Part shown: positions 21,246 to 36,011 of the stretch, in pieces
How positions within the stretch are numbered: position 1 is the stretch's first letter
Layout: each line of letters starts with the position of its first letter
Program-made: the position numbers and the translations under genes
The notes under the pieces: generated by a model
Seen by the model: only the letters and a program-made list of their open reading frames with translations
Databases searched by the model: none
What the model was told of the DNA's origin: nothing
Assembly (NCBI GenBank): GCA_964521815.1
Contig: CAZFSN010000001.1
Span: 6,721 to 52,639 of the forward strand
Reading direction: 5' to 3'
Length of the DNA: 45,919 nt
From: an uncultured Ignavibacteria bacterium
GTDB lineage: Bacteria; Zixibacteria; MSB-5A5; UBA10806; 4484-95

Positions 21246-21337
21246 AAGAAGTCACCTTCCGTTGCGCGAATCGAATTCGAATCTTTGGGATTATTATTGT
21301 TAAATGGCAAAGCATAACATTCACTTTGCTTTTCTGT

Positions 21338-21784
21338 TCATTGCACATTGATTTTCATAAGTGCTTCTTGAAATTTTTCCATGTGAGACTGAAATGATTC
21401 TGCACAGACTGAGCAAATTGCTGCCATTTTAAGCCTTTTTGGATCATGGCCATGCTCTTCAAGCAACAATTGCGCCTTTTTGACTATTTCGCCAGTTCTT
21501 TTAGTGCAATCAGGCAGATAGGCGCAATCTGTTCCATCCGCAGCAATAAAAATCCCATCGAATCCTGCCTCTATTGCGTGCAGTACCCATGAAGGCCTAA
21601 TACCGCTGGAACACGGGACAGGTATTACCATAATAGATGGTGAATAAGGCATATGTGAGCCCCCGGCCAAGTCAATTCCCGGATCGGAAATATTATTGGT
21701 AGAGAAAACCAATATTTTGGGCTTGTTGCCGACAGTTTGCGTAGCTTGCAACATTATTTCATCCGGCGCACAAAGATCCGCCAA
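21338..21784 (-). CDS. MvhD-like (methyl-viologen-reducing hydrogenase delta subunit family) Fe-S protein
   Basis: 148 aa. Motifs: KILVFSTNN, VPCSSGIRPSWVLHAIEAGFDGIFIAADGTDCAY. A more likely start is Met11 at 21754, which gives a TAATG overlap with the TusA-like stop. Confidence 0.8.
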   Translation of the reverse strand: MADLCAPDEIMLQATQTVGNKPKILVFSTNNISDPGIDLAGGSHMPYSPSIMVIPVPCSSGIRPSWVLHAIEAGFDGIFIAADGTDCAYLPDCTKRTGEIVKKAQLLLEEHGHDPKRLKMAAICSVCAESFQSHMEKFQEALMKINVQ

Positions 21785-22008
21785 TAACCGGCTTCCTCGA
21801 CATTTCCAAGATACTCATGACCTACTTTTTTGCACCAGAGAGGAATGTCATCGTTTGTCCCTTCGTCTGATGAAAGCACTTCCATAATAGCATTCACGGG
21901 AACCGCTGCTATACCTCTTTTTGCTTCAAGCAAAGGGCCGGGACAAGCGGTGCCACGAGCATCAACGGTTTTGTTAACTGTCAAAGTTTTTAATTCTTCT
22001 TTTTCCAT
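21754..22008 (-). CDS. TusA-family sulfur carrier protein
   Basis: 84 aa with the CPxP motif in DARGTACPGPLLEAKRGI. It is the first gene of the Hdr-type operon. Confidence 0.85.
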   Translation of the reverse strand: MEKEELKTLTVNKTVDARGTACPGPLLEAKRGIAAVPVNAIMEVLSSDEGTNDDIPLWCKKVGHEYLGNVEEAGYWRIFVRRMK

Positions 22009-22109: not shown

Positions 22110-22679
22110 CTAAATATTCACTGCTGTTTCAAAACCCTCTCTTACTGCGTCATAAATTTGCCGAGGCCGCCCGGCATCGCCAATTGTTTTCATTTCGATT
22201 AGCTGTTTTGTCATAGCCTCCGGTGTCGCACCGGTTGATAGGCAAGCAACTTCGGATGGAACCACCGGCTTTTGGCCTATTACTTTCGGATTGGCCGCCC
22301 GGCCGGCATGGTTAATATGAGCTATTGCTAAGATGCCGCCACTGTGAATTGCCTTTACTAAACCCTTAAGTTCATTAACATGGTCATAATTGGAAATACC
22401 GAGCTGTTTGGGATGATCCTTTCCCAAAGCGTCTATGAATAAAGGTTCTACGATTATTGCACCAACTCTCCCTTCTGCCCACCGATGGTAGTATGCCTCA
22501 TGCCGGAACGTAACCCCACTTGTGAGGCTGCCATATCCTGTTTTTACGGGTGCCATTAGTAATCTGTTAGGCAATTCAAGCGAACCAAGCCTGAAAGGCG
22601 CGAATGGATCCACAGTCATCTCCTGAGTTTTTATCTTTATCTCTTTGCAAACCGGCTTTTTTCTATTCTTTGAGTACAC
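22110..22679 (-). pseudogene. Remnant of an Old-Yellow-Enzyme/2,4-dienoyl-CoA-reductase-type flavoprotein (N-terminal ~140 aa joined to a ~25-aa C-terminal end)
   Basis: From Met21 (22619) the sequence reads MTVDPFAPFRLGSLELPNRLLMAPV...HINHAGRAANP..PSEV, which is typical of an OYE N-terminus. It then jumps to KTIGDAGRPRQIYDAVREGFETAVNI, which looks like the end of an FAD/NAD domain. Total length is 169-189 aa, against more than 330 aa expected. Confidence 0.55.
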
Positions 22680-22989
22680 ACCAGACTATGAAAATGGTAG
22701 CCCCTGTTTTCGTAGTGAATGGTCCATGACCGATTTCCTTGGGAATAATGCGAAATGTTCCACTTGAGTAAGTTTCGCCCTGGCTTTCGTATTCTCCCTC
22801 CAGAACATAATGTAACTCCGTATGAGTGTGAGAATGACTGTCCATACTCCATCCAGGGGGAATCTTCAATAGAATGCTCCGGGGGGCCATGTCACTACCG
22901 ATACTGAGCACCTTTTCCTTTGCTCCAGTAGCATAGATCAATGAATCTTGCCATTCCACGTTATTGGCATTGATATTCACACTATTCAT
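22663..22989 (-). CDS. Cupin-domain protein (ChrR-like cupin)
   Basis: 108 aa. Motifs: PPGWSMDSHSHTHTELHYVLEGEY.....G.F..IPKEIGHGP. Confidence 0.7.
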   Translation of the reverse strand: MNSVNINANNVEWQDSLIYATGAKEKVLSIGSDMAPRSILLKIPPGWSMDSHSHTHTELHYVLEGEYESQGETYSSGTFRIIPKEIGHGPFTTKTGATIFIVWCVLKE

Positions 22990-22995
22990 TTTTTG

Positions 22996-23457
22996 TCACC
23001 TGCCAACCTTATTGATAAATCTTATTTCGCTATGGGCCCTGTTAATATACCTGAAAGTTTTTTCAGCGCCCGCATCCGATGATAATATTACAACACCGGC
23101 TCTCACCCGATCATTTCTGACATCTTTATGATACGACAAGGGTTCGTCTGTAATTACAGCTGTTGGCAGATCCATTTCCTGTTTGGTTAAATGTATCAGC
23201 CGGCCCAAGTCCTCGCATAATGCAGGTTCCCCATCTCCCACGAAGGTGGTGTAATCCGGTTTATAATTTTGAGATCTTTCTTGGATTTCAGAAAATATTT
23301 CCTGTTTTGGACAAAAGCTGTTTATGGCAACCCGCAGGTATTTTGTTCGGCCTAACTGACAATATACCCAGGAGTATGAGCAGGTTTTTAGTGGGATCGG
23401 GCTAACCCCCATGGAGCGTCCTAATCTTCGCGATGGAACCGGTCCATAAGTAAACAT
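22996..23457 (-). pseudogene. Truncated radical-SAM family gene (YGPVPSRRLG-type) with a Cys-to-Trp change in the CxxxCxxC motif
   Basis: 153 aa. It starts MFTYGPVPSRRLGRSMGV. The cluster motif reads CSYSWVYCQLG, with TGG at 23368-23370 where the paralogue at 35.3 kb keeps Cys. It ends shortly after INRAH, so the C-terminal half of the barrel is missing. Confidence 0.55.
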
Positions 23458-23462
23458 TGCTT

Positions 23463-23882
23463 CTACTCCGATTTCTCAATCCGGTAATCATGAATTATTT
23501 CTACAGCATCCTTAAACATGGCCGTTCCGCCACAGTATTTTTCTTCAGCAAGTTCTATCGAGCGTTCTATGTCTGAGGGTTGAATATTTTTTCCGGAAAA
23601 AATATAGTTTAGCTTTATCCTGGTAAATACCCGCGGGTGATCTTCGGCTCGTTCGGCCTCAACCTCCATGTTAAAGTCAGTCAATTCAACTCTTTTTTTT
23701 CGCAATATTGAAAGCACGTCCATAGCGGCGCAACCGGCCGCCCCCATCAAGATAAACTCCATAGGACGGGGACCGGCAGAATGCCCCCCGAATTTTTCGG
23801 GACCATCCATTGTCACCCAATGGTTTGAATCGCTAACGCCTGCCAGGGCAATACCGTCGATTAATTTAATTTTTGCATTCAT
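23463..23882 (-). CDS. OsmC/Ohr-family peroxiredoxin-like protein
   Basis: 139 aa. The layout is OsmC-like (GPRPMEFILMGAAGCAAMDV...EKYCGG). Confidence 0.85.
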   Translation of the reverse strand: MNAKIKLIDGIALAGVSDSNHWVTMDGPEKFGGHSAGPRPMEFILMGAAGCAAMDVLSILRKKRVELTDFNMEVEAERAEDHPRVFTRIKLNYIFSGKNIQPSDIERSIELAEEKYCGGTAMFKDAVEIIHDYRIEKSE

Positions 23883-24030
23883 TTTTCTAAATATACTCAG
23901 GTTGATTAGGGTGAATAATCACCGTCATCTGCATAAGATTTTTTAATCTCAGCGATTTTATCAACCTTTTTTTATGACCTCAGTTAATAGCCGCCTGTAA
24001 TCGAAAAAGGCGGCTATTACGGCAACCATG

Positions 24031-24231
24031 CTAATCGTTCCGAGTAAATGGCAAATCCCGGCAGCGCCAACAACCCTGCTTTTCGAAATCCCCGCTCAAA
24101 TCAATGCCTTTATCGCAGAGCCATAAGCATCCGTTTTTGTCAAGGTGCACTTCCATTGGCCTCGCTCCCGGGTGAAAAATTCCGTTACCCATAACATTCA
24201 GCTTTTTGTCTTTAACTGCCACGGTCAACAC
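24031..24231 (-). CDS. Small Cys4 protein of unknown function
   Basis: 66 aa. It has C-x3-C (CLWLC) and C-x2-C (CWRC). It lies 58 nt downstream of the DUF2173-like ORF on the same strand. Confidence 0.5.
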   Translation of the reverse strand: MLTVAVKDKKLNVMGNGIFHPGARPMEVHLDKNGCLWLCDKGIDLSGDFEKQGCWRCRDLPFTRND

Positions 24232-24289
24232 CTCCTTTATTTTCTATTATTAGATTTTTCCATTGGTGAAAGTTCATTACCGGGATATT

Positions 24290-24652
24290 TTAATAATTCA
24301 TCTGACGGGCGCCGGTCGGCTCTGTCCCGAGAAGGTCAACTATCAGCTCATTCAAATCCGCATGTTTTGATTCAATAAAAACCCCGGTATTGCCCATTAC
24401 GACCACAACATACTTGCCGGCCCATACGGCCCAGCCAATAAGCGGCTGCCATTCCATCGTAGCTTTAATTTCGAAAAATTTGGTCAGTTCGTTCAGTTTC
24501 TGATTCTGATAGGCACAAATTTTGGCGGTTTCTTCTATTATTTCATCAGCGATTACGCCGACTTTGCGGATGACTTTGCCGGTATCGGAAAACTGTCCTG
24601 CCGCCACAACCCCCTTGATTTTTATTAACCTGTCGAGCCCTATCATAATCAT
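24290..24652 (-). CDS. DUF2173-like / roadblock-LC7-like small protein
   Basis: 120 aa. LIKIKGVVAAGQFSDTGK..., recalled as resembling DUF2173. It has a strong RBS (AAGGAGGA) and a -24/-12 promoter upstream. Confidence 0.5.
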   Translation of the reverse strand: MIMIGLDRLIKIKGVVAAGQFSDTGKVIRKVGVIADEIIEETAKICAYQNQKLNELTKFFEIKATMEWQPLIGWAVWAGKYVVVVMGNTGVFIESKHADLNELIVDLLGTEPTGARQMNY

Positions 24653-24688
24653 CCTCCTTTTATTCTTCCCATATCCATGTTTATGAAC

Positions 24689-24704
24689 AGCATAATTTGT
24701 GCCA
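24689..24704 (-). promoter_or_regulatory. Candidate sigma-54 (-24/-12) promoter for the DUF2173-like operon
   Basis: The minus strand reads TGGCAC-AAATT-ATGCT with correct GG-N10-GC spacing. It lies about 37 nt upstream of the ATG at 24652. Confidence 0.55.
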
Positions 24705-24874
24705 GATTATAGCGTAGCTGAATAAAAGCGCTAATCAATTGATATAGATTTAGTTATGGCAGTTAAATAGTGAGGCGGCTTATATTAATTATGAAGGTTA
24801 AAAATATATAATGCAATCTTGCACGATATTAAATCTTGAGCGTGCAATAACGCAATGAGATTCAAATGCAGAAA

Positions 24875-26260
24875 TCAGGAATGCGAAGGGATTGCCAAGC
24901 CCAGTTTTTTGATTTTTCGGTAAAGGGTTGACGCATTTATGCCCAGCTCCCGGGCTGTCTTTTTACGGCTCCAGTTGTTTTTTTTCAAAGCTGCTATAAT
25001 AAACAAAGATTCCATTTCATTCATCGTACTGGCAATTTCAACTGCCGGTATCACTCGCTTCTCCTGAAGATATTCAGGTAAATGTTCAGCTTTGATTACT
25101 CCACCGGGAGAAAGAATAAAGGCATGCTCTATTATATTTTCCAGCTCACGGATATTGCCGGGGAAGTTATGCTTCATTAACAAGGCTAAAGCTGGCTGCG
25201 CCATACCGGATATGTTCTTATTGCGCAATTTATTGAATTGATCTATAAAATGATCAATCAACAAAGGAATATCACCCTTTCTATCTCGTAGAGGCGGCAA
25301 CACTATTTTAACTACATTGATACGGTAGTATAAATCCTGCCTGAACGTTCCGCGGGATACGAGTTCTTCGAGCTGCTTATTTGTTGTAGTAATTATCCTT
25401 ACATCCGACTTTTCGGATTGAGTACTACCTAAGGGTTCATAATTTTTCTCCTGGAGGACTCGAAGCAGCTTCACCTGCATAGCCGGCGAAATATCCGCGA
25501 TTTCATCCAGCAGCAAGGCGCCTTTATCGGCAATTGCGAATCGTCCCTTTTTATCCTTCTTGGCGTCGGTGAAAGCGCCAGCCTTATAACCAAATAGCTC
25601 CGATTCAAGAAGAGTATCAGGAAGAGCACCGCAATTTATGCTTACAAAAGGTTCGGCTTTGCGGGGGCTTAGATTATGCAAGGCCTGAGCTACTAATTCT
25701 TTCCCTGTCCCGCTTTCACCTTCTATCAGCACCGAGCTTTCACTTTGGGCGATTGTAGGCAGAATTTTGAAAAGTTCAAGCATTTTATGATCCTGGCTGA
25801 TTATATTTTCAAATGAAAATATTACCGTGAATTCCTTACGCAGTTTTTCAACCATGTTGAGATCACGGAACGTTTCAACACCGCCTGTTATATTTCCCTT
25901 ATTATCTTTTAGAAGGGCCGTGGAAACACTAATAGGGATCCGCTGCCCTCTCTTATTTGTCATGCATACCAACTTGTTTATTACGGGTTTTCGGGAAGAC
26001 ATCGTCCGTTGCAGCGCGCACCCTTTATCGCAAATATTAGTCTGCAATATATCGGCGCATTTTTTCCCCAGAGCTGCGCTTTTGCTATATCCAGTAATTC
26101 TCTCCGCCGCCTTATTCAAAAAAGTAATCTTGTAATCCAGATCCACAGTAAAAACACCATCCGATATGCTATCTATCATTGTCAGTAATTTTTCACACGT
26201 AAGTTCATCTTTAAGAACAAGATCGGGATTTGATGTCTTATGTTTATTTTTGACAGCCAT
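24875..26260 (-). CDS. Sigma-54-dependent transcriptional activator (PAS - AAA+ - Fis HTH)
   Basis: 461 aa. It has a PAS domain (SISDGVFTVD), Walker A GESGTGKE, GAFTDA loop, and a C-terminal HTH (ARELGINASTLYRKIKKLG). There is no receiver domain. Confidence 0.9.
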   Translation of the reverse strand: MAVKNKHKTSNPDLVLKDELTCEKLLTMIDSISDGVFTVDLDYKITFLNKAAERITGYSKSAALGKKCADILQTNICDKGCALQRTMSSRKPVINKLVCMTNKRGQRIPISVSTALLKDNKGNITGGVETFRDLNMVEKLRKEFTVIFSFENIISQDHKMLELFKILPTIAQSESSVLIEGESGTGKELVAQALHNLSPRKAEPFVSINCGALPDTLLESELFGYKAGAFTDAKKDKKGRFAIADKGALLLDEIADISPAMQVKLLRVLQEKNYEPLGSTQSEKSDVRIITTTNKQLEELVSRGTFRQDLYYRINVVKIVLPPLRDRKGDIPLLIDHFIDQFNKLRNKNISGMAQPALALLMKHNFPGNIRELENIIEHAFILSPGGVIKAEHLPEYLQEKRVIPAVEIASTMNEMESLFIIAALKKNNWSRKKTARELGINASTLYRKIKKLGLAIPSHS

Positions 26261-26790: not shown

Positions 26791-28098
26791 TCAAGCTATG
26801 CCTAACGTTTTCATCTTGCGCCAGAGCGTGGAGCGATGCATTTCCAATTCGGCAGCGGATTTTGCTTTATTGCCTTTATTGCGTTTTAAAACTTCGAGAA
26901 TAACGCTTTTTTCGCTTTTATGGTTTGTATCGGGTTTAAGGCCGGCAATTTGATAATTGGTTATATGCGGCGGTAGATGTTCTAATTCTATCTCCTGACC
27001 ATGGCACATGACAAAAGCGTGTTCTATGGCATTCTCCAGCTCGCGAACATTGCCTGGCAGGGGATGATTGCGCAGCGTCGCAAGAGCTTCGGAAGATATA
27101 CGCTTAACCTGTTTTTTGCTTTTTTTCCTGAATAGCTTGATAAAATGATTTACCAGTAAAGGTATATCCTCGGGCCGGTCGCTCAGTTGGGGGATATTGA
27201 TATTAACTACATTGATACGGTAATACAAATCGCGCCGGAATTTCCCTGCCTCGATGAGATCATTCAGTTTTGCGTTTGTGGCGGCTATAATTCGCGCATC
27301 AGTGTGAAGCGTTTTGGCTGAGCCCAGGGGTCGGTATTCGCCGTTGTTTAATACGCGGAGGAGTTTCACCTGAAGAGAATTATCCATCTCACCTATCTCA
27401 TCCAAGAGAAGCGTACCTCCGCTGGCGAGACTGAACTGGCCGGGTTTATCACGCTTGGCATCTGTGAAAGCACCCTTCTCATAACCAAACAGTTCCGATT
27501 CGAGCAGATTCGCCGGCAATGCCGCGCAGTTAATCTTGATATACGGACCATACCGCCGAGGGCTTAAATTATGAATCACCTGCGCGAACAGTTCCTTACC
27601 CGAGCCGCTTGGCCCCTCGATTAACACATTGCACTCCGATTCGGCGACATCAGGAAGCAGCCTTATTAAGCCGTGCATCTGGGAATTGACACTGACTATA
27701 TCATCAAGGGCTTGTTTTTGTTCGAGGCTTTTCCGCAGATGCTCTATCTCGGATATATCCTGGAAAAATTCAACGGCGCCGACAATGTTATCGTTCTCGT
27801 CTTTTAGCATCGTGGTTGTTACCCTTATCGGTAACTCGCGGCCGTCCCTGGTAATAATGGTTACCCGGGCATCATCCACCGAGGAATGAGTTTTAAGCGT
27901 ATCTTTCAGTGCGCATTGAGTGTGACAAACCTCGGTTCTGAATATATCAAAACAATGCTTGCCAATCGCTTCTGTTCTTTTAAAACGAGTGATTCTTTCG
28001 GCTGATTTATTGAATGAGGTAATTACACAATTGCGATCAACCGTGAAAACGCCATCGCGTATGCTATTGAATATTAACTGACTTAATTTTTTTTCCAT
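26791..28098 (-). CDS. Sigma-54-dependent transcriptional activator (PAS - AAA+ - Fis HTH), paralogue of 24875..26260
   Basis: 435 aa. It has a PAS domain (SIRDGVFTVD), Walker A GPSGSGKE, GAFTDA loop, and an HTH (AAELEMHRSTLWRKMKTLG). Confidence 0.9.
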   Translation of the reverse strand: MEKKLSQLIFNSIRDGVFTVDRNCVITSFNKSAERITRFKRTEAIGKHCFDIFRTEVCHTQCALKDTLKTHSSVDDARVTIITRDGRELPIRVTTTMLKDENDNIVGAVEFFQDISEIEHLRKSLEQKQALDDIVSVNSQMHGLIRLLPDVAESECNVLIEGPSGSGKELFAQVIHNLSPRRYGPYIKINCAALPANLLESELFGYEKGAFTDAKRDKPGQFSLASGGTLLLDEIGEMDNSLQVKLLRVLNNGEYRPLGSAKTLHTDARIIAATNAKLNDLIEAGKFRRDLYYRINVVNINIPQLSDRPEDIPLLVNHFIKLFRKKSKKQVKRISSEALATLRNHPLPGNVRELENAIEHAFVMCHGQEIELEHLPPHITNYQIAGLKPDTNHKSEKSVILEVLKRNKGNKAKSAAELEMHRSTLWRKMKTLGIA

Positions 28099-28217
28099 AT
28101 CTGATAAGCCTCGCTATGATAGATATATGAAAATAAACATATCAAATGCAAGTATATTCCGATAATTGATAATAAGTTGCTGTTATCGATATGTATCATC
28201 GCTTTTCATTAAAAGAA

Positions 28218-28754
28218 TCAAGCGGAGATACGTTCGATAATATCCCAGCTATCATTTTCCAGCCCCAGCTTATTTATTAGAAGGGCCGCTTGTTTGTTTA
28301 GATGAAATTGAACGGGCTTATCCGGACCAACGAGTACAACCGGGCACACGAACGCTTCAGCGAATTCCTCTATCGGCCGCCCGCCGAATTTAGCATTACC
28401 GCCGACATATCCCAGCACCAATATCTGGAATTCTCTGATAAGCAAGCATTTGTGAAGCTCAACCCATTCCGCATCCTCGCAAAGACGGAAGCCGACATCG
28501 AGATAATCCCCGGCGCGTTTATCATAGTACATGCGCAACTCTTTTTCACGTTCTATAGCAAGTTTCGCTTTGGCTTCTCGATCAAGCCTATCGGCCAAGT
28601 CATCATCGATATTATAAGGATCAGCAAGAAAATGAAATACGTTAAGTTGAATCAAATGCTGCCTGGAAAGTTTCAAGGCATAATCGAATGCCCAATCACC
28701 TTGTTGTGAATAGTGAGCGCAAAAGCCCACGGCATTTAAAGTTGGAATGGCCAT
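28218..28754 (-). CDS. Universal-stress-protein (UspA)-like protein
   Basis: 178 aa. The ends are USP-like (VGFCAHYS..ALKLS...LNVFHF; ILVLGYVGG...PIEEFAE...CPVVLVGP). It lies 45 nt downstream of the NifX-DUF1847 ORF. Confidence 0.55.
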   Translation of the reverse strand: MAIPTLNAVGFCAHYSQQGDWAFDYALKLSRQHLIQLNVFHFLADPYNIDDDLADRLDREAKAKLAIEREKELRMYYDKRAGDYLDVGFRLCEDAEWVELHKCLLIREFQILVLGYVGGNAKFGGRPIEEFAEAFVCPVVLVGPDKPVQFHLNKQAALLINKLGLENDSWDIIERISA

Positions 28755-28799
28755 AGTTATCTCCTCGCTGCTGATTTAATAATTAATATCTTCATTTCT

Positions 28800-29843
28800 T
28801 TAAACAATGGGGGCAAACACCTTTTTTGCTTCATCCAGATAATAATCCGAATACAGCGCCCCGATTGGATTGTTCGCCAACGATCGGTCTTTCACGAAAA
28901 GCGTAGTAACCGGTGCCTCGCTGGCCTTGGTAAAAATACAATCCGCCCCCATACAAATTCCTACAATTACATTCAAATCGGTTTTAAGATTGTTTAACAC
29001 CTCGGCCTGTCCGAGAGGATTGCAAGCTATTTGCCTTTTATAATTCTCATTACCGGCATCTGCCATCTGCGAATTGAATGGATCGTCAATACTATTGCCG
29101 CCTATTTTACAGCATACCGGGTAAATCTCGAAAAAGCGTTTGAGTAACCGGGCTAAAATATCGGCCGGCTCCTGAAGGTCTATGCAGTAGGCTATACCAA
29201 TACGTTTGTAACGCATCTCAAGACAGAAATAAATAAGTTCCGAGAGACGACATAGTGTGCGTTCTTTTTCACAGGCGATATCTAATGTTGCTTCAATTAT
29301 GCGCAGAATATCTTTTTTATAATGAGATGGCTCTAAAGCTAACCTTGAGACCGGGGGACATTTCTCACCTCTTAAACAAAGCCGATCAGTACAGGAGAGA
29401 CAGTCAACTTGAGCGCCGCTGTCAGGGCCTTTGCTGATATCCGGAATACCCGATTTATCATGCGCCACTATATGGTCAGAGTGCCTGGTTTCGCTTTTCA
29501 CTATCCCTTGATCAATTTGCTCACTCAGCCCGAACCCAGGTTCAAGACTTCCGTCAGTAATAGCATCGACTATCTCATCAATGGTGCAGGCGACATTATC
29601 TATTATCTCAACTCTTCTGGCCTGAAGAAATTCTTTATTATCCCGGCTTATGCCGCCGCATATTAGCGTATCAACACGGTATTCTGAAAGCAGCTCTCGC
29701 AAATCGAACAAGTTATGACCGCTGAATGACACTTTTTCTTCAGTGCATACTTTATCTCGTCTCAACACTAAAAGTGTCACCGAGTCCGCATATGTACATC
29801 GGGGCGCAACCCGATCTCCAAGTAATGGCACACCGTATCTCAT
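28800..29843 (-). CDS. Fusion protein: NifB/NifX-type (dinitrogenase FeMo-cofactor-binding fold) N-domain plus DUF1847-type Cys-rich C-domain
   Basis: 347 aa. The N-terminus is GVPLLGDRVAPRCTYADSV..VDTLICGGISRD..L....VEII. The C-terminus is DCLSCTDRLCLRGEKC, IGIAYCIDL, ACNPLGQAEVLN..DLNVIVGICMGADCIFTKASEAPVTTLFVKDRSLANNP. Confidence 0.65.
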   Translation of the reverse strand: MRYGVPLLGDRVAPRCTYADSVTLLVLRRDKVCTEEKVSFSGHNLFDLRELLSEYRVDTLICGGISRDNKEFLQARRVEIIDNVACTIDEIVDAITDGSLEPGFGLSEQIDQGIVKSETRHSDHIVAHDKSGIPDISKGPDSGAQVDCLSCTDRLCLRGEKCPPVSRLALEPSHYKKDILRIIEATLDIACEKERTLCRLSELIYFCLEMRYKRIGIAYCIDLQEPADILARLLKRFFEIYPVCCKIGGNSIDDPFNSQMADAGNENYKRQIACNPLGQAEVLNNLKTDLNVIVGICMGADCIFTKASEAPVTTLFVKDRSLANNPIGALYSDYYLDEAKKVFAPIV

Positions 29844-29869
29844 AATTTACTCTCCTGAGATAAGTAATT

Positions 29870-29886
29870 GCAAATGGTATGCCAAG
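29870..29886 (-). promoter_or_regulatory. Sigma-54 (-24/-12) promoter for the NifX-DUF1847 / USP operon
   Basis: The minus strand reads TTGGCAT-ACCAT-TTGCAAT, a near-consensus TGGCAC-N5-TTGCA. It lies about 27 nt upstream of the ATG at 29843, with AGGAGAG as the RBS. Confidence 0.7.
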
Positions 29887-30058: not shown

Positions 30059-30119
30059 ATGTCGCCACAATGTTGCAATATGTCGCACCACGAAACGTTT
30101 GTTGCAACATGCGCGACAT
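30059..30119. promoter_or_regulatory. Cluster of repeated motifs (candidate activator binding sites) in a divergent sigma-54 control region
   Basis: ATGTCGC occurs at 30059-30065 and 30080-30086 (21-bp phasing). Its inverse GCGACAT occurs at 30113-30119. TGTTGCAA occurs at 30071-30078 and 30100-30107. Confidence 0.4.
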
Positions 30120-30307: not shown

Positions 30308-30324
30308 CGGTATGAACTTTGCTT
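30308..30324 (+). promoter_or_regulatory. Candidate sigma-54 (-24/-12) promoter for the DsrKMOP-like operon
   Basis: The sequence is CGGTAT-GAACT-TTGCT with correct GG-N10-GC spacing (GG 30309-30310, GC 30321-30322). It lies about 40 nt upstream of the ATG at 30364. The -24 flank is weaker than consensus. Confidence 0.45.
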
Positions 30325-30363: not shown

Positions 30364-31803
30364 ATGGATGAAAGTATTTTAAAAGCACCGCAGAATATTG
30401 ATACTAAAGAGAAGAAAAAAAAATCGTTTTACTATATTGAAGAATACAATACCGATAATCTGGTTGAAAGATTTCTTGAAGCCTTTGCGGCCGTTTTAAA
30501 ATATAGCGATTACCGGCCGCTGCTCGATTCTTATTGTACCTCAAGCGCCAAATGTAACCGATGCGCCGTAACCTGCCCCGTATTTTTGGCCACCGGTGAT
30601 CCTCGGGATATTCCCTGCTATAGAACAAATCTACTCCTAAAAGTATATCGTCGTTATTTCACTATTGGCGGATGGCTCAATGGCAGGGTTACCGATGGCT
30701 TCGAATTGACCGAGGAGGTTATCGATGACATGCAGGAAGTATTTTATCGCTGCACCGCGTGCCGTAGATGCACCCGCGAATGCCCGTTGGGAGTAGACCA
30801 TGGCCTGATGACTCGTCTGGGACGATATATCCTTAGCTTAATTGGGATTGTGCCAAAAGCGTTACGGGTAAGTGTCAGGGAGCAGCTTGAGGGGGAAACT
30901 CATAACACTTCCAAGGTACCTAAAATAGCGTTATTAAATACACTGGAGTTTTTAGCCGAGGAACTGGAGGATTTGACCGGCGTTAAGGTTGAATTTCCGG
31001 TGGATCAACCCAATCGGGATTATGTCTTTTTCTGTGCGGTCAGCGACTATTTGATGGAGCCCGAAACTCTTATGGGAAACGCGGCGGTGCTTTATGCCTC
31101 AGGAGACTGGGATAGATGGACTATAGGCACATGTAATTATGATGGTATCAATTATGGGCTGTTTTACAGTGACTGGCACTTAGAAAATATTATCAAGCAG
31201 CTTGTTGGCGAGGTAACGCGCTTGAATGGCCGTAACATCCTAATCGGCGAATGCGGTCATGCCTCGCGATCCGCTCACGATTTCGTTCCGATATTTGCCG
31301 GCAAGGAAACTTACCCGGTGCTCAATTTTATGGAATACACTCTCGATTGTATTCAGAAGGGGAAGATCAGGCTGGATCCCGATATTATAACTGAACGCGT
31401 TACTTATCACGATCCCTGCAATATTGCTCGTTCAGGGTGGATAGTTAATCAGCCGCGAGAGATATTAAAAACCTTCGTTAAAAATTTCGTTGATATGACC
31501 CCAAATGGCCAGGACAATTTCTGTTGCGGTGGTGGCGGCGGCCTGGTATCGGTTGATGAAATTCATGATTTCCGGATGAAAATAAGCGGCAGGGTGAAGG
31601 CCGAGCAGCTAATTCAAACCGGTGCCGATATCTGTATCGCACCCTGCGCCAATTGCAAAAAGCAGCTTAAAGAATTAGTCGAGCATTATAATATCCCCTG
31701 TAAAATCATGGGATTACATGATCTCATTCTTAAAGCCATCTATATTCCCGGGGGCAAAGGCCCAAAAGAGCGCCAGGAAAAAGCAGCATTATGCGAGATG
31801 TAA
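30364..31803 (+). CDS. DsrK/HdrD/HmeD-type Fe-S protein (2x[4Fe-4S] plus CCG domains)
   Basis: 479 aa. Motifs: CTSSAKCNRCAVTCP, CTACRRCTRECP, then HDPCNIARSG, NFCCGGGGG, APCANCKKQL. Confidence 0.85.
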   Translation: MDESILKAPQNIDTKEKKKKSFYYIEEYNTDNLVERFLEAFAAVLKYSDYRPLLDSYCTSSAKCNRCAVTCPVFLATGDPRDIPCYRTNLLLKVYRRYFTIGGWLNGRVTDGFELTEEVIDDMQEVFYRCTACRRCTRECPLGVDHGLMTRLGRYILSLIGIVPKALRVSVREQLEGETHNTSKVPKIALLNTLEFLAEELEDLTGVKVEFPVDQPNRDYVFFCAVSDYLMEPETLMGNAAVLYASGDWDRWTIGTCNYDGINYGLFYSDWHLENIIKQLVGEVTRLNGRNILIGECGHASRSAHDFVPIFAGKETYPVLNFMEYTLDCIQKGKIRLDPDIITERVTYHDPCNIARSGWIVNQPREILKTFVKNFVDMTPNGQDNFCCGGGGGLVSVDEIHDFRMKISGRVKAEQLIQTGADICIAPCANCKKQLKELVEHYNIPCKIMGLHDLILKAIYIPGGKGPKERQEKAALCEM

Positions 31804-31834
31804 ACCATAAAAAAAAATTAGTTCGAGGATCAAT

Positions 31835-32533
31835 ATGGAACACTGGATTGAATTCGCCAAAGGGCCACTTTTTGCCTTTTCTTTTTTAATAATGGTCCTC
31901 GGCTTAGCCAGACTGGTTATTATCCAAATATATTCGCTTATCACCGGCAAAGGCCGCCGCTTAATGAATGCTCCCTGGAGGAAAATTGTTAAGGAAGCCC
32001 TCAGCTGGGTGATCCCGGTCCGTCACCTGATACCCGGGACAAAATTTTTCTCAATTATTTCATTTTTATTTCATATTGGAATTATTGCCGTGCCGCTTTT
32101 CCTGGCAAATCATATTGTTTTGTGGGAAGGTTTTTTAAACATTAAACTGCCGTCGATTAGCCGTTTCCTGGCGGATTTTTTGACGCTGTTCACTATTGCT
32201 TGCATTTTTATACTTTTTGGATTCAGGCTTTTTTCCCGAAGGCATCGCGCTATGAGCACACCTATGGATTATACCCTGCTTATACTGATATTTTTGCCAT
32301 TCGCCTCCGGTTTTCTGGCATCTCACGCAGCCATTAATCCTTTCCCGTGGGGTGTTATGATGTTAGTTCATTTACTAAGTGCGGAATTGCTATTTATCAC
32401 TATCCCATTCACCAAGCTGGCGCACATAGTGCTGTTTGCATTCGACAGGATTTCAGCGCTCCATTGGCAGCTTCAACCCGGAGCCGGCGACAAAGTTGCC
32501 GAGGCGCTTTATGGCAAGGAGGCCAAGGTATAA
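31835..32533 (+). CDS. DsrM/HmeC/NarI-type membrane cytochrome b-like subunit
   Basis: 232 aa with 5-6 hydrophobic helices. Conserved His are present (LFHIGIIAVPLFLANH, LVHLL) and the ending is ITIPFTKLAHIV, typical of the NarI-like family. Confidence 0.75.
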   Translation: MEHWIEFAKGPLFAFSFLIMVLGLARLVIIQIYSLITGKGRRLMNAPWRKIVKEALSWVIPVRHLIPGTKFFSIISFLFHIGIIAVPLFLANHIVLWEGFLNIKLPSISRFLADFLTLFTIACIFILFGFRLFSRRHRAMSTPMDYTLLILIFLPFASGFLASHAAINPFPWGVMMLVHLLSAELLFITIPFTKLAHIVLFAFDRISALHWQLQPGAGDKVAEALYGKEAKV

Positions 32534-33327
32534 TGTATGGCATATTAGTTGATGTTACCAAATGTATAGCCTGCGAAAAATGCGTTATGGCCTGCGTTGA
32601 ACGCAATAAACTAGATTCCAAACTGGCGGAGCGTGACCGGGCGATAACAAGCGATGGTCTGTCGGAAAATCGTTTATCTACAATATTAAAAGTTTCGGAT
32701 GAGCGCTTTGCCCGTAAAAGCTGTATGCATTGTGTCGAACCAAGTTGTGTTTCGGCCTGTCTGGTTGGTGGAATTACCAAATCACCCGAGGGGCCGGTAG
32801 TATACGATCCCGATAAATGTATTGGTTGTCGCTATTGCATGTTGGCCTGCCCCTTTCATATACCCAGATATCAATGGGATAAGATATCGCCGTTCATGGT
32901 TAAATGCGATATGTGTTATGATCGGGTAACTGACAACCAATTACCGGCTTGCGTCGAGGCCTGTCCGCAGGGCGTGCTTGAATTCGGGGAAAGGGATTCT
33001 CTGTTGAAAATTGCTAAAATGCGTATAAAACAAAACCCGAACAAATATCTCAATCATATCTGGGGAGAGAAAGAGTTCGGCGGTACATCCGTTATTTATA
33101 TCTCGGATGTCGATCTGGCTGGAATTGGCTGGCCCGAGCATGAACCGGAAGCAATCCCCCGTCTCACCGAGCCGCTCATTCACAAAACCCCATTTATCGG
33201 TTTCAGCGTTGCTTTTGGGCTTGTCGGTATTAACTGGATTATTAAACGACGGATGAAATTGGCGGATGAGAAAAACAATACAGTTATAAAAAACGATTCC
33301 ACCGGGGAGACTGAAAATGATAAGTAG
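32533..33327 (+). CDS. DsrO/HmeA/NrfC/HybA-type 4-cluster ferredoxin subunit with C-terminal TM anchor and no N-terminal signal peptide
   Basis: I take the start at ATG 32533, which makes a TAATG overlap with the upstream stop. The listed ORF start at 32347 overlaps the dsrM-like gene. Motifs: CIACEKCVMAC, CMHCVEPSCVSAC, CIGCRYCMLACP, CDMCYDR...PACVEACP. The C-terminal helix is FIGFSVAFGLVGINWII. Confidence 0.85.
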   Translation: MYGILVDVTKCIACEKCVMACVERNKLDSKLAERDRAITSDGLSENRLSTILKVSDERFARKSCMHCVEPSCVSACLVGGITKSPEGPVVYDPDKCIGCRYCMLACPFHIPRYQWDKISPFMVKCDMCYDRVTDNQLPACVEACPQGVLEFGERDSLLKIAKMRIKQNPNKYLNHIWGEKEFGGTSVIYISDVDLAGIGWPEHEPEAIPRLTEPLIHKTPFIGFSVAFGLVGINWIIKRRMKLADEKNNTVIKNDSTGETENDK

Positions 33328-35290
33328 AACTCGGCCGATAAAGGATGTGCTCTGGTTTTTTGCTCTTCTCGGCCTTATAGCCGGCGCTTTCAGGTTGGTT
33401 TTCGGGCTTGGCGCGACAACCAACCTTTCTGATATGGTGCCTTGGGGTTTGTGGAAAGTACTGAATATGGTTGCCGGTGTTGCTATCTCAACGAGCGGGT
33501 TTACGGTTGGATTCCTGGTATATGTTTTGAGGCTTGAACGATTTCGCCCGTTCATGAAACCGGCAATCCTGATAGCTTTTCTGGGTTATGGCTGTTCCTG
33601 CCTGGCGCTATTATTCGATATCGGTCTGCCGTTCAGATTCTGGCACCCGATATTCATGTGGAATATTAATTCATTCTTATTCGAGGTTTTTTGGTGCGTA
33701 CTTTTATATTTCACCATTACGGCTATAGAATTAGCGCCATCATTTTTCGATAAATTGAAAGCCGAGAAAGTATCGCATTTTCTTCATCGTTTTGCAACTG
33801 CGGTGGTAATTATAGGTATCTCGTTATCGAGCCTGCATCACTCCTCGCTGGGTTCGCTATTTTTAGTCACGCCGCTAAGACTCCACCAGCTATGGTACAC
33901 GCCGTGGCTTCCATTCCTATTTATTATTTCCGCTATGGGCGGCGGCTTAATGTTTGTGGTATTTGTTAAGATACTCTGGTCGTGGTGGTATGATCGTGAA
34001 ATCGTTTTCGGCCAGGCTAAAATGCGAAATATTCCACTTTTAAAAAAAGCCAACGGCATCGAAAAACTAACAAATCATGAGGAAGGCGTACAATTTCCTA
34101 TTGTCCGTCAAATGGCAACGATTGCTGCCGGTTTATTGGCTGTTTATTTCATCTTAAAAATACTCGATCTAACAGTGCACGGCAACTGGGGGGCATTACT
34201 TGCCGGAACCTGGGAAAGCTATCTCTATATATTCGAGCTGGTGATTACTGCTGTAATCCCTGTTAGTTTGATGCTTATCTCTAAAACCAGACAATCCCCG
34301 GCTATAGTAGGATTTGCCGGCTTATCGGGGGCTGTGGGTTTGGCCTTGAACAGAATGGATGTGGGTATATTCGGTTATTTCCGCGATGCCGGGATTGTAT
34401 ATTTTCCATCTTTTGCCGAGTGGTCTTTAAGTATCGGCGTTGTGGCTGCAGCCGGTTTGGTGTTTTTCTTCATCGCCGAAAATCTGCCGATTTTCAGCGA
34501 TTATCCGCCGGTTGTTCAGAGTCGCACCGGCATGTTCCGTCAAACATTCGGGACTCTCCGCCAGATATGGAATATGGTATTTATGGATAGTCTCCATCGA
34601 GTATCATTGATCGCCGTAGCAACTATTCCCCTTGCTTATATTTTGATGTACCCGCCCTTTTATAATAACTTAAGGTCAGAGAAGACAATTAATCAATCAT
34701 TTGGGGTCGATATTGAAAGAACGGTATTAAAAATCGATGGCGATCGCCAGGGGGTTAGTACTATTTTTGCGCATGCCGAACATCAAAAGCGTTTGGGAGA
34801 TTCATTGTCCTGTCGGATATGCCATCATATCGCTATGCCCAATGATAAATCAACTCCTTGTTCTGAATGCCATCATTTTATGAATTCATCGTCGAATATT
34901 TTCAATCATGATGCCCATGAGGCATATATAGCAAAAAGGGATAAGCTGGAAGGGTTTTTCCCGGTTAACAATTCGTGTACAGAATGTCATCCCGCAGATA
35001 GCCCCAAAACCGCGGCTACCGCGAAAAATTGCCTGGAATGCCATAAACAGGACATGCGCATTGCAGGGTGTCTTGATGATAGCACAAATCTATCTATGGC
35101 TGGCCCATTCCGTGAGGCTATGCATGGAACCTGCGTTAAATGCCATACCAGAGAAGCCGCCCAAACCGGCAAAAAGATGCTTGATGTATGCGGAACCTGC
35201 CATCAGACGTTAAAGTCTTATGAATTGTCAAAACAAGAGATAGCCCGGGCGGGTGAAATCCATTTGAATTCTCCTGCGCAAAACAATTAA
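33317..35290 (+). CDS. NrfD/PsrC/DsrP/HybB-type integral membrane subunit fused to a C-terminal multihaem cytochrome c domain (6 CXXCH)
   Basis: 657 aa. By eye there are about 10 NrfD-type helices (e.g. MVPWGLWKVLNMVAGVAISTSGF) plus an 11th helix (VSLIAVATIPLAYILMY). The CXXCH motifs are CRICH, CSECH, CTECH, CLECH, CVKCH and CGTCH. It overlaps the upstream gene by 11 nt. Confidence 0.85.
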   Translation: MISRTRPIKDVLWFFALLGLIAGAFRLVFGLGATTNLSDMVPWGLWKVLNMVAGVAISTSGFTVGFLVYVLRLERFRPFMKPAILIAFLGYGCSCLALLFDIGLPFRFWHPIFMWNINSFLFEVFWCVLLYFTITAIELAPSFFDKLKAEKVSHFLHRFATAVVIIGISLSSLHHSSLGSLFLVTPLRLHQLWYTPWLPFLFIISAMGGGLMFVVFVKILWSWWYDREIVFGQAKMRNIPLLKKANGIEKLTNHEEGVQFPIVRQMATIAAGLLAVYFILKILDLTVHGNWGALLAGTWESYLYIFELVITAVIPVSLMLISKTRQSPAIVGFAGLSGAVGLALNRMDVGIFGYFRDAGIVYFPSFAEWSLSIGVVAAAGLVFFFIAENLPIFSDYPPVVQSRTGMFRQTFGTLRQIWNMVFMDSLHRVSLIAVATIPLAYILMYPPFYNNLRSEKTINQSFGVDIERTVLKIDGDRQGVSTIFAHAEHQKRLGDSLSCRICHHIAMPNDKSTPCSECHHFMNSSSNIFNHDAHEAYIAKRDKLEGFFPVNNSCTECHPADSPKTAATAKNCLECHKQDMRIAGCLDDSTNLSMAGPFREAMHGTCVKCHTREAAQTGKKMLDVCGTCHQTLKSYELSKQEIARAGEIHLNSPAQNN

Positions 35291-35312
35291 TTTCCCCTGA
35301 GGTGACTTATGC

Positions 35313-35740
35313 ATGTTTACGGCCCTGTTCCCTCAAGGAGATAGGGGAGTTCCCCGGGGATAGATATTATCCCGCGCAAAACATATTCCACTCGTGTGTT
35401 TATTGTCAACTGGGTAGAACAATAAGACGGCGGATTAATCCTCAAAGCTTTTATCCCAAAGAATCAATCATCGATGAAATCGAGAGCAGTCTGCTAAATT
35501 CAAATCCCAATTACATTACGATCGCTGGGGACGGTGAACCGACCCTGTCAAGCGACCTTGGCTGTATCATAGGTCAATGTAAAAGCCGATGGCCTGTACC
35601 CGTGGCGGTTACCAAAAATGGCTCTTTGCTTTTCAGGCCCGAGATACGAGAAAGCCTGGTTAATACCGACGTAGTTATGCCCTCCCTCGATACTGCCAAC
35701 AAGAAGATTATCCGCAAAATCAATATACCTTTGCACACCG
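35313..35740 (+). pseudogene. Decayed radical-SAM family gene (YGPVPSRRLG-type), paralogue of 22996..23457
   Basis: ATGTTTAC at 35313 then shifts frame into GPVPSRR followed by an in-frame TAG (35342-35344). A second shift leads into ..HSCVYCQLGRT..ITIAGDGEPTL..PSLDTANKKIIRKINIPLH. Homology stops near 35736, where an antisense SDR remnant begins. Confidence 0.65.
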
Positions 35741-36011
35741 GCATTGTTGACCAGGACATTTAAGATGCGGAAATTCTCGGTTGTCCATTCAAGCAAAGAT
35801 TTCCGATCCTTATCTTTGGCAATATCGCATACTTTGATATGTAATTCCGGATGTTCTTTTTGAGCTTTAATAAGTCTTCCTTTTCTTCGGCCACAAATTA
35901 TGACTTCGTTCCCTTTTTCAGGAAAAATTCAGCCATTGCATAGCCAATACCCGTAGCACCGCCAGTGATCACCACGGTATTCCCCGAAATCTTTATTCGA
36001 ACTCTCCCGCA
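35716..36011 (-). pseudogene. N-terminal remnant of a short-chain dehydrogenase/reductase (SDR) gene with a frameshift
   Basis: The minus strand reads ..RIKISGNTVVITGGATGIGYAMAEFFLKKG, then a 1-nt frameshift with an in-frame TAA, then (N)EVIICGRRKGRLIKAQKEHPELHIKVCDIAKDKDRKSLLEWTTENFRILNVLVNNAGVQRYIDF. There is no start codon, and the catalytic YxxxK half is absent. Confidence 0.6.

Follow-up and report, generated by a model that had tools for sequence, protein, structure and literature searches.

What kind of complex is encoded by four tightly coupled genes that join a CCG protein, a NarI-like membrane protein, a four-cluster ferredoxin and an NrfD-like protein with a fused hexahaem cytochrome? 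The genes lie on the plus strand in an uncultured Ignavibacteria bacterium (GCA_964521815.1, contig CAZFSN010000001.1, positions 6,721 to 52,639 of the forward strand; GTDB lineage Bacteria; Zixibacteria; MSB-5A5; UBA10806; 4484-95). This stretch of 45,919 nucleotides is called the window here, and coordinates are counted from its position 1. An initial annotation had labelled the genes DsrK-M-O-P, and we retain its letters: K (30364-31803, 479 aa), M (31835-32533, 232 aa), O (32533-33327, 264 aa counted from the ATG) and Pc (33317-35290, 657 aa). Direct reading of the sequence confirmed these coordinates and the junctions. The genes are translationally coupled: K and M are separated by 31 nt, M and O meet in the TAATG at 32531-32535, and 11 nt (33317-33327) are shared by O and Pc. 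The assignment of the four modules likewise proved right in Pfam and NCBIfam. As had also been claimed, dsrAB, dsrC and apr domains were absent from the 39 open reading frames of at least 66 aa in the window that were scanned against Pfam. The whole, including the mechanism outlined below, is in our view best explained, with reasonable probability though well short of certainty, as an Hmc-type transmembrane redox complex, a compact four-gene form of the HmcABCDEF/DsrMKJOP design.

Every subunit scores below the NCBIfam cut-off of any named family, so function can be transferred by analogy alone. K is the only one of the four whose best NCBIfam profile is DsrK (290 bits, cut-off 400; HmcF 216, TmcB 192), and to this extent the earlier label stands. 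It does not hold for the other subunits: by profile scores M falls with TmcC/HmcE, O with HmcB/HybA and the NrfD portion of Pc with HmcC/HybB, so that the three are of Hmc, Tmc or Hyb type and not of Dsr type, and the closest family is Hmc, which had not been named among the relatives. With its Fer4_8 and CCG domains (Pfam), K is predicted to be a cytoplasmic protein of the DsrK/HmcF/TmcB class. It carries two canonical [4Fe-4S] motifs and a single complete CCG motif (C352, C387, C388, C428 and C431); of a second CCG site the remnant E-C297-G-H299 is left. In an alignment of relatives the Cys and His residues of these motifs are invariant. K retains the Cys-x-His motif of DsrK, and a Cys occupies the position of the ligand Asp500 when K is aligned with proteins above the DsrK cut-off.

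M matches Pfam NarI weakly (21.8 bits, cut-off 22.9) and finds stronger support in NCBIfam (TmcC 120 bits, HmcE 111 bits, no score for DsrM); in the PDB it matches NarI with E 0.03. It is probably a five-helix membrane protein of the NarI/TmcC/HmcE type. Invariant His pairs, H80 and H93 in helix 2 and H179 and H197 in helix 5 (helices assigned by eye), suggest that it binds two haems b. O, a Fer4_11 protein in Pfam, scores 242 bits on HmcB over profile positions 37-301 and only 94 bits on DsrO; it is 32% identical to E. coli HybA (aligned to HybA residues 39-316, tail anchor included) and matches FdnH in the PDB (E 1e-30). Its 16 Cys are invariant in 77 of 77 relatives, whose C-termini have a membrane helix followed by K/R-R-R. 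O is an HmcB/HybA-type 4x[4Fe-4S] protein.

Pc consists of a membrane part (33317-34657) of the HmcC/HybB type and a periplasmic part (34658-35290) that resembles c3/c7 cytochromes. Pfam finds NrfD together with Cytochrom_CIII and Cytochrome_C7; NCBIfam gives HmcC 233 bits and HybB 201 bits and no score for DsrP, and identity to E. coli HybB is 28% over residues 26-402. An AF2 model of low confidence (mean pLDDT 60.7) has 11 helices, with ActC at the top of the Foldseek matches. The predicted topology is N-in and C-out, the K+R sums being 22.3 in the "in" loops and 3.75 in the "out" loops. Pc is a 10-helix HybB/HmcC-like NrfD protein whose 11th helix puts the C-terminal hexahaem domain into the periplasm. 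The six CXXCH motifs reported for this domain were all found again, at residues 499, 515, 554, 572, 606 and 625 (starting at 34811, 34859, 34976, 35030, 35132 and 35189), and are invariant in 24 aligned relatives; exactly six such motifs occur in 77 of 79 relatives. Six further His (H486, H489, H504, H531, H534 and H603) are invariant or nearly so in the same alignment and would suffice for six bis-His haems. Residues of the quinone site are also kept. S119 of Pc, the counterpart of HybB S129, and Y101 of O, the counterpart of QrcC Y113, are both invariant. An invariant Asn50 stands where HybB has D58 and QrcD D70, an Asp required for quinone reduction and, in HybB, not for the reverse reaction. 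By one pairwise alignment this replacement fits the quinol-oxidising direction.

The rearranged gene order and the fused cytochrome had been regarded as what sets this locus apart. Both features are present; they are traits of a large conserved family and not peculiar to this genome. For the fusion, a search found 641 relatives, the best 120 of which are all 621–690 aa long. The genome search proposed earlier showed K-M-O-Pc to be collinear in 71 of 80 loci, with a contig end interrupting eight others, and none of the 71 complete loci separates the four genes. K is the most conserved subunit, with 68-89% identity across the named lineages, and the order of the genes is practically constant; on both counts the four genes lie far beyond chance and are real.

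The K-M-O-Pc operon belongs to a fixed seven-gene module, of which it forms one half; the rest is transcribed divergently. The divergent operon, the module and the OrpR-like regulator had been overlooked in the initial annotation. On the minus strand lie genes for a NifX+DUF1847 protein (28800-29843, the first gene of the operon), a 178-aa Cys protein (28218-28754) and a sigma-54 enhancer-binding protein (26791-28098) with PAS, AAA+ and HTH_8 domains in Pfam. All seven genes were found in 58 of the 80 loci, almost all the remainder ending at a contig end, and the association is reciprocal when the search starts from DUF1847. Six or more named lineages of uncultured bacteria, including Zixibacteria, Ignavibacteria, Gemmatimonadota and Acidobacteriota, carry the module in nearly the same form. 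The number of loci with ORP-like genes downstream is about 6-15 and varies with the gene (NifX-like, MinD/ferredoxin ATPase, DUF5320). Apart from these, the clusters recurring near the module comprise only radical SAM, regulator and a few other unrelated or unannotated genes; outer-membrane conduit or other multihaem genes do not recur beside it. The TusA/DsrE/Hdr operon 8 kb away had been thought to be functionally linked, a proposal without synteny support, as no such genes recur near the module within the limited flanks examined in other loci.

In the NifX+DUF1847 protein Pfam finds DUF1847 (121 bits) and, weakly, Nitro_FeMo-Co. Its N-terminal domain (about residues 1-108) is modelled by AF2 with pLDDT above 87 and matches PH0822, TM1816, MJ0327, NifX and ORP in Foldseek (target-normalised TM-scores 0.59-0.83), from which it is predicted to have the NifX/NafY/orange-protein fold. 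With 10 invariant Cys, this co-regulated protein is the most obvious candidate for a cytoplasmic partner of K. The 178-aa protein, conserved and predicted to be cytoplasmic, has three invariant Cys (C12, C92, C103) and no Pfam match at E<=0.01; weak Usp matches in 8 of 10 family members (best E 0.0049) hint at a universal-stress-protein-like fold. Synteny of the activator gene holds in 58 of 80 loci, and nearly all others end at a contig end. The PAS domain of the activator contains C49-x-D51-x6-C58-x3-C62, the [4Fe-4S] motif of OrpR, which all 58 family members have. In OrpR, C52, C61 and C65 with D/E54 bind a redox-sensitive [4Fe-4S] cluster (PMC8359166), and the activator is probably a redox-sensing regulator of the seven-gene module.

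The sigma-54 promoter proposed upstream of K was upheld. The -24/-12 element CGGTATGAACTTTGCT (30308-30323, plus strand; GG-N10-GC) stops 40 nt short of the K start codon; of 66 related loci, about 58 have a TGGTAY-N5-TTGC-type element 30-55 nt upstream of K, mostly at 36-43 nt. A second element, TGGCATACCATTTGCA (29869-29884, minus strand), with one mismatch to the consensus, lies 25 nt upstream of the DUF1847 gene and has an equivalent no more than about 50 nt upstream of that gene (mostly 23-38 nt) in about 53 of the 66. The positions of both promoters are therefore conserved. Between them are the tandem candidate activator-binding sites TGTTGCAATATGTCGCAC and TGTTGCAACATGCGCGAC (18-19 nt each, 30070-30117); GTTGCAA was found in 65 of 66 intergenic regions and GTTGCA-N5-TGCAAC palindromes in 27.

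How might such a complex work? The OrpR-like activator would turn on both operons at low redox potential only. Quinol would be oxidised at a periplasm-side site formed by Pc and O, and electrons would pass from the four FeS clusters of O to the six bis-His haems of Pc, after which the two haems b of M would carry them over the membrane. From M they would enter K by its two cubane clusters and end at the CCG site, which would reduce a cytoplasmic disulfide or sulfur-type substrate. Proton release outside and consumption inside would contribute to the proton-motive force, and the chain could run in reverse. The route is taken over from that proposed for DsrMKJOP in a cryo-EM preprint (P to O to haems c to M to K). 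The earlier idea of a quinone-linked connection from the periplasm to a CCG site in the cytoplasm holds in general terms. One observation counts against a periplasmic O and is left unexplained: N-terminal signal peptides or Tat signals are missing from O and from the N-termini of the 77 relatives, and Tat signals from the conserved neighbours of O as well, whereas DsrO, HmcB and HybA carry one. This absence had not been remarked upon before.

It might be argued that K-M and O-Pc are two independent, co-transcribed modules, the one a DsrMK/HdrDE-like quinol:disulfide reductase and the other a Qrc/Nhc-like cytochrome c:quinone oxidoreductase, linked through the quinone pool as a redox loop with no direct transfer from haem to haem. 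The closest K relative checked outside the family is adjoined upstream by a 222-aa gene, possibly M-like and without a Pfam match, and by no O or P gene; modules that combine FeS, HybB-like and cytochrome parts are known to stand alone; and in cable bacteria DsrMKJ is thought to be one complex and the DsrOP homologues with their cytochrome another. We nevertheless consider this rather unlikely, as the four coupled genes stay together in every complete locus and, in the DsrMKJOP structure, the cofactors run without a break by way of the periplasmic cytochrome into DsrM. An outward-facing quinol oxidase like the Cbc/ImcH-type inner-membrane cytochromes of Geobacter is quite improbable. Here electrons drawn from the quinone pool or, through K-M, from the cytoplasm would go to periplasmic carriers, which would hand them to acceptors in the periplasm or outside the cell. 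The hexahaem domain has solely bis-His-type haems and is hence an electron-transfer module, the window encodes a CbcL-like fusion protein with a cytochrome b domain and 11 haem motifs, and Asn50 is compatible with quinol oxidation. However, K is the most conserved subunit and has kept all of its catalytic CCG site, which argues for a reaction in the cytoplasm, and conduit genes do not recur beside the module.

Very improbable is a true, rearranged DsrMKJOP that reduces DsrC-trisulfide, with dsrAB and dsrC elsewhere in the genome. The best profile of K and its Cys-x-His motif speak for it, and DsrO proteins of Zixibacteria and Acidobacteria appear in a phylogenetic survey, which means that Dsr genes occur in some representatives of these lineages. 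Yet K remains below the DsrK cut-off and has the Cys at the Asp500 position, O prefers HmcB to DsrO by a wide score difference, Pc and M lack DsrP and DsrM matches, DsrJ is absent, and neither the scanned window ORFs nor the clusters recurring near the module include a dsr gene.

The Hmc-type complex that we favour has module types identical to those of Desulfovibrio HmcABCDEF, which comprises a periplasmic multihaem cytochrome c, a tail-anchored four-cluster HmcB, a 10-helix NrfD-like HmcC, a NarI-like HmcE and a cytoplasmic CCG protein, HmcF, and whose function and direction are still uncertain. HmcB and HmcC are the best NCBIfam profiles of O and Pc, and for M HmcE comes just behind TmcC, all below the equivalog cut-offs. 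In Hmc naming the gene order is F-E-B-C(A). The separate 16-haem HmcA corresponds here to six haems fused by the extra helix to the C-terminus of the NrfD-like protein, HmcD has no counterpart gene, and O lacks the N-terminal signal region of HmcB. Rrf1/Rrf2 regulate the hmc operon, an OrpR-like sigma-54 activator probably the present one, and instead of Desulfovibrio the hosts come from uncultured branches of the FCB group (Fibrobacterota-Chlorobiota-Bacteroidota), Gemmatimonadota and Acidobacteriota. With DsrMKJOP and archaeal HmeABCDE the complex has five functional modules in common, and K is DsrK-like in its single CCG site and Cys-x-His; the separate trihaem DsrJ with its His/Cys haem, the Asp500 ligand and the dsrAB/dsrC context are missing. 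The dimeric redox module of HybA-HybB (E. coli hydrogenase-2) and Qrc/Nhc is recognisable in O and Pc over their full length, including the quinone-site Ser and Tyr, although O has no Tat signal, Asn replaces the Asp, and the partner is a fused cytochrome with K-M in place of a hydrogenase. Finally, the OrpR-controlled orp operons of D. vulgaris likewise form two divergent sigma-54 operons beside their activator, share the C-x8-C-x3-C motif with an acidic residue at +2, and include NifX/ORP-fold proteins; the OrpR binding site differs from the candidate site here, and the orp regulon contains no membrane respiratory-type complex such as is included among the genes regulated here. We found no description of the module in the searchable literature, and the combination of a membrane subunit that bears a fused six-haem cytochrome with a putative redox-sensing switch appears to be a previously undescribed version.

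The four genes of the operon, which lie on the plus strand, were recovered by the ORF calls of the window at the positions proposed in the initial annotation: K (30364-31803; 479 aa), a protein with a CCG domain, the NarI-like M (31835-32533; 232 aa), the four-cluster iron-sulfur protein O (32533-33327; 264 aa from its ATG) and Pc (33317-35290; 657 aa), an NrfD-like membrane protein fused to a hexahaem domain. The junctions could all be read in the sequence as described, with a gap of 31 nt between K and M, a TAATG stop/start at 32531-32535 and an 11-nt overlap of O and Pc, and neither the ORF calls nor this reading revealed an additional gene inside the tightly coupled operon. Pfam assigned Fer4_8 and CCG domains to K, Fer4_11 to O, and NrfD (32.8 bits, cut-off 25.8) plus cytochrome c3/c7 to Pc. 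The NarI match of M was below threshold; NCBIfam gave clear TmcC and HmcE matches. All six CXXCH motifs of Pc were confirmed (residues 499, 515, 554, 572, 606 and 625). There is no DsrJ gene; instead the hexahaem domain is joined to Pc. The reported absence of dsrAB, dsrC and apr also held for the 39 ORFs of the window that were scanned with Pfam. Scans for sigma-70 promoters and terminators gave counts at chance level.

The Pc fusion defines a family: 641 proteins match it at E<1e-5, and the best 120 of these range from 621-690 aa in length, with identities of at least 53%. A scan for relatives with one genome per species gave 146, of which the best 80 were compared as loci, all from metagenome-assembled genomes. 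By their labels these 80 loci belong to Gemmatimonadota/Longimicrobiales (20), Ignavibacteria (19), Zixibacteria/GN15 (10), Acidobacteriota (7) and genomes labelled "Hyphomicrobiales" (6), with 11 unclassified and seven single loci from Bacteroidetes, Fibrobacteraceae, Krumholzibacteriia, LCP-89, the FCB group, Polyangia and BMS3Abin03. No cultured representative carrying the genes was found in the lineages examined. The nearest relative among the best 80 is a metagenome-assembled Zixibacteria genome (Pc 75%, K 89% identical), a lineage from which the window probably derives, and K is 68-89% identical across Zixibacteria, Ignavibacteria, Gemmatimonadota and Acidobacteriota.

The search of other genomes for the K-M-O-Pc arrangement, suggested in the initial annotation, found it collinear in 71 of the 80 loci. 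Eight of the nine non-collinear loci are cut by a contig end, and the ninth, L033, is either a real or an assembly exception; here (1-2843, on a contig of 1.4x coverage) a Pc gene has neither M nor O upstream. In locus L084 (3896-7930) the four genes are in short fragments, perhaps because of frameshifts in long reads or because the copy is decaying. Apart from L033 and L084 no departure from the fixed layout was noted. In 58 loci, as in the window (26791-29843, minus strand), the operon is preceded by a divergent trio encoding a NifX-DUF1847 protein, a 178-aa cysteine-containing protein and a PAS/sigma-54 activator. Twelve of the other 13 loci with all four genes are cut by a contig end. Locus L076 gave no match for the activator. 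A reciprocal search from DUF1847 homologues led to the same layout. The K-M-O-Pc operon is half of a larger module of seven genes.

Beyond these seven, no gene was universally linked in the 80 loci. The annotated recurrent neighbours within about 9 kb were ORP-like, radical SAM and regulator genes, and dsr genes were absent among them. Depending on the gene, ORP-like genes (radical SAM, NifX-like, DUF5320 and a MinD/ferredoxin ATPase) lie downstream in about 6-15 loci, the closest relative included. In the latter (L002, 10983-17122) the genes after the module encode a radical SAM protein (310 aa), another activator, a DUF5320 protein, three proteins of the NifX type and a MinD/ParA ATPase into which a ferredoxin is inserted; this ORP-like set is missing downstream of the module in the window.

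The candidate sigma-54 promoter of K is backed by conservation. In the window 40 nt separate the end of its GG-N10-GC element from K, and about 58 of the 66 related loci compared have such an element 30-55 nt, mostly 36-43 nt, before K. Another sigma-54 element, TGGCATACCATTTGCA in the window, precedes the DUF1847 gene, mostly by 23-38 nt, in about 53 of the 66 loci. All 58 activators carry the motif C-x-[D/E]-x6-C-x3-C of Desulfovibrio vulgaris OrpR (PMC8359166), a redox-sensing sigma-54 activator of orp operons. By homology the activator of the module probably senses redox potential, which would place the module under redox control. As candidate binding sites the window has a tandem pair of TGTTGCAA-N-ATG-N-CGC sequences at 30070-30117; of 66 intergenic regions, 27 contain GTTGCA-N5-TGCAAC palindromes. 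Ten cysteines of the NifX-DUF1847 protein are invariant; its N-terminal domain has the NifX/NafY/orange-protein fold (target-normalised TM-scores 0.59-0.83), and DUF1847 is without a solved relative. The 178-aa protein has three invariant cysteines and only weak Usp matches, and a profile search against the PDB returned nothing for it.

A second OrpR-like activator, found in many of the loci, is encoded in the window at 24875-26260 on the minus strand (motif C68-x-D-x6-C-x3-C), upstream of a sigma-54 site, TGGCACAAATTATGCT, at 24689-24704. On the 3' side of this site, within 22110-26260 (minus strand), are genes for a DUF2173 protein, a 66-aa ORF, OsmC, a radical SAM remnant, a cupin and an OYE remnant, and several genes of this region are also found close to the module elsewhere, in 3-16 loci. 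The two radical SAM ORFs of the window (35302-35763, plus strand, and 22996-23457, minus strand; 153 aa each) correspond only to the N-terminal half (residues ~1-165) of the 310-aa L002 homologue, and the OYE-like ORF (22110-22679, minus strand) covers just two stretches, 1-141 and 600-635, of a homologue with 635 residues. By these alignments all three look like gene remnants.

The Hdr/sulfur-carrier run at 14730-22008 (minus strand) is real as well. It comprises TusA, MvhD, a 929-aa NfnB/HdrA-like fusion, HdrA, a 79-aa HTH-like ORF, HdrC-like and HdrB-like (CCG) proteins and DsrE. The functional link to K-M-O-Pc that had been considered finds no backing in synteny, as none of these genes recurs near the module elsewhere (flanks of about 9 kb). 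A 681-aa protein (7390-9435, minus strand), in which 11 CXXCH motifs are fused to an FdnI/cytochrome b561-type membrane domain, is built like CbcL, a quinol oxidoreductase of the Geobacter inner membrane. At 10157-12932 (plus strand) a Fur-family regulator adjoins a KatG-type catalase-peroxidase, an oxidative-stress pair amid an otherwise anaerobe-like neighbourhood.

To which known complex is K-M-O-Pc related? NCBIfam scores (in bits, against curated family cut-offs) placed all four proteins below the cut-off for every family. O scored 242 with HmcB (cut-off 420), 202 with HybA and 94 with DsrO (cut-off 200); Pc scored 233 with HmcC (cut-off 550), 201 with HybB and 122 with QrcD; M scored 120 with TmcC and 111 with HmcE (cut-off 275). 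At E<=0.01 there was no match of Pc to DsrP or of M to DsrM, and the HmcA profile gave only a weak match of 22 bits. By these scores M, O and Pc are nearer to Hmc, Tmc and Hyb than to Dsr proteins. K scored 290 with DsrK, 216 with HmcF (cut-off 750) and 192 with TmcB, and thus fails the DsrK equivalog (NF045796) with its cut-off of 400 bits; four of 20 full-length relatives scanned pass it (P0134 451, P0138 413, P0149 622 and P0157 701). Direct alignments bear this out: O could be aligned to Escherichia coli HybA over residues 39-316, C-terminal helix included, and Pc to E. coli HybB over all ten helices (E 2e-39). The initial annotation had the module types right but left HmcABCDEF unnamed, which has exactly the same set: a cytochrome c, HmcB, HmcC, HmcE and HmcF. 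It follows that "Hmc-type complex with a DsrK-like catalytic subunit" is the accurate label. In a comparison with PDB sequences, a set without a DsrMKJOP structure, the sole match of K was a mycobacterial-type 'iron-sulfur-binding reductase' (9ojn) and nothing was found for Pc. The clade sharing the fusion is large, but full-text literature searches found no description of the fusion or of the seven-gene module; an earlier mention is possible. K-M-O-Pc is real and strongly conserved, an Hmc/Dsr-type complex that has apparently not been characterised before, and the module is not a new kind of system.

M has invariant histidine pairs in helices 2 and 5, as in NarI. K, the most conserved protein of the module (median identity 76%), bears one complete CCG motif (C352, C387, C388, C428 and C431) besides two cubane-cluster motifs. 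In Archaeoglobus fulgidus DsrK the only non-cubane-cluster site is accompanied by a conserved cysteine that is not a ligand (C329) and a nearby histidine (H331); in K the corresponding E296-C297-G-H299 does not vary within the family, nor among 14 of 14 aligned DsrK/HmcF-like proteins. DsrK D500 is an aspartate in place of the last cysteine of CXXC cluster ligands. In the column presumed equivalent K has C431, aspartate occurs only in P0157, and three other proteins above the DsrK cut-off have cysteine. In O all 16 cluster cysteines are invariant, as is Tyr101, which is flanked by two ligands of the proximal cluster; its equivalent in QrcC, Y113, is essential.

An AF2 model of Pc, of low confidence (pLDDT 60.7) and used without the haem domain only to count helices and to establish the ActC match, has 11 helices. 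With this low-confidence model Foldseek found two proteins of alternative complex III, ActC (top) and ActF, followed by PsrC. Lys plus Arg in the loops, as summed family means, amount to 22.3 on the predicted inward side as against 3.75. This bias gives Pc the orientation of HybB, in which the N-terminus is inside, and a single extra helix takes the haem domain outside. Six further histidines are invariant or nearly so (H486, H489, H504, H531, H534 and H603); because they suffice for six bis-His haems, the domain looks like an electron wire rather than a catalytic site. The quinone-site serine (S119) is retained, and Asn50, invariant in 79 of 79 sequences, stands at the position of HybB D58 and QrcD D70, the carboxylate that joins the quinone site to the proton path and is required for quinone reduction.

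It might be thought surprising that O, which is predicted to face the periplasm, has no signal peptide. All 77 family members begin at the first cysteine motif, and a Tat-like motif is absent from every conserved protein of the module. This does not fit the predicted side of O. The protein does end in a helix followed by RRR (K/R-R-R), as in tail-anchored iron-sulfur proteins, and published signal-less proteins of this kind are thought to hitchhike on an adjacent hydrogenase with a Tat signal; no such partner is visible at the module. An in-frame GTG ORF starting at 32347 would add an 'SRRQS' sequence to O. This extension (32347-32532, 186 nt) lies inside M, lacks a hydrophobic core and is not conserved in the relatives of O (median ORF length 264.5 aa); it is therefore regarded as an ORF-calling artefact and not as a signal peptide. 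Alternatively, O might face the cytoplasm as NarH does on NarI. We think this unlikely, since the HybB orientation of Pc speaks against it, as do the outer-side loops of Pc, which are its most conserved, and the K/R-R-R after the tail helix of O.

According to the DsrMKJOP structures, DsrP oxidises quinol and the electrons pass via O, J and M to K. By analogy we propose the same wire for K-M-O-Pc, the fused hexahaem domain replacing DsrJ or HmcA. Asn50 fits the quinol-oxidising direction, because the carboxylate is needed for quinone reduction and HybB D58 is dispensable for the reverse reaction of Hyd-2. A live alternative is a redox loop of two separate modules, K-M and O-Pc, without direct contact. 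The co-regulated NifX-DUF1847 and 178-aa proteins are obvious, though speculative, candidates for the substrate of K. That the complex is a membrane-energised reductase/oxidase for the NifX-DUF1847 protein or its metal-sulfur cofactor, and not an enzyme of sulfur respiration, we regard as an improbable reading. If true, it would make the complex a DsrC-independent counterpart of DsrMKJOP through which an ORP-like metallocluster system of strict anaerobes is tied to the quinone pool and the proton-motive force, and it might include a route placing a four-cluster subunit in the periplasm without a Tat signal of its own.

Complexes of the Hmc, Tmc and Dsr types are the known means by which anaerobes wire the periplasm and the quinone pool to cytoplasmic thiol or sulfur chemistry, and to our knowledge they have so far been studied almost only in sulfate reducers. 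The module is a compact relative of these complexes, strongly conserved and widespread among uncultured bacteria of sediments and soils (Zixibacteria, Ignavibacteria, Gemmatimonadota and Acidobacteriota). It offers biochemists a defined target, namely what a DsrK-class enzyme reduces in a module without dsr genes, and a natural experiment in which a cytochrome is fused to an NrfD-like subunit. It also poses two puzzles, the export of a signal-less periplasmic iron-sulfur subunit and the meaning of the lost proton-path aspartate.

Compared with known systems, the activator resembles the OrpR type in its PAS domain, which has the C-x8-C-x3-C motif and is acidic at +2, in its sigma-54 AAA+ and HTH_8 domains and in having its target promoters close by. 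O shares the C-terminal helix of the Tat-dependent HybA-type proteins but lacks their N-terminal twin-arginine signal. Pc belongs with the ten-helix HybB/HmcC/QrcD group of the NrfD/PsrC family, to judge from the NrfD profile, the HybB alignment and the N-in topology. With DsrMKJOP the module shares the single CCG site and Cys/His pair of K, which are common to HmcF and TmcB too and hence do not discriminate; DsrMKJOP has a separate trihaem DsrJ and Dsr-type DsrO, DsrP and DsrM, and the module lacks all four. HmcABCDEF in turn has a separate 16-haem HmcA and the small membrane protein HmcD, whereas the only haem motifs of the module are the six in Pc. In its set of subunits, however, the module is like Hmc, with O, Pc and M scoring best or near-best on Hmc models and K matching HmcF.
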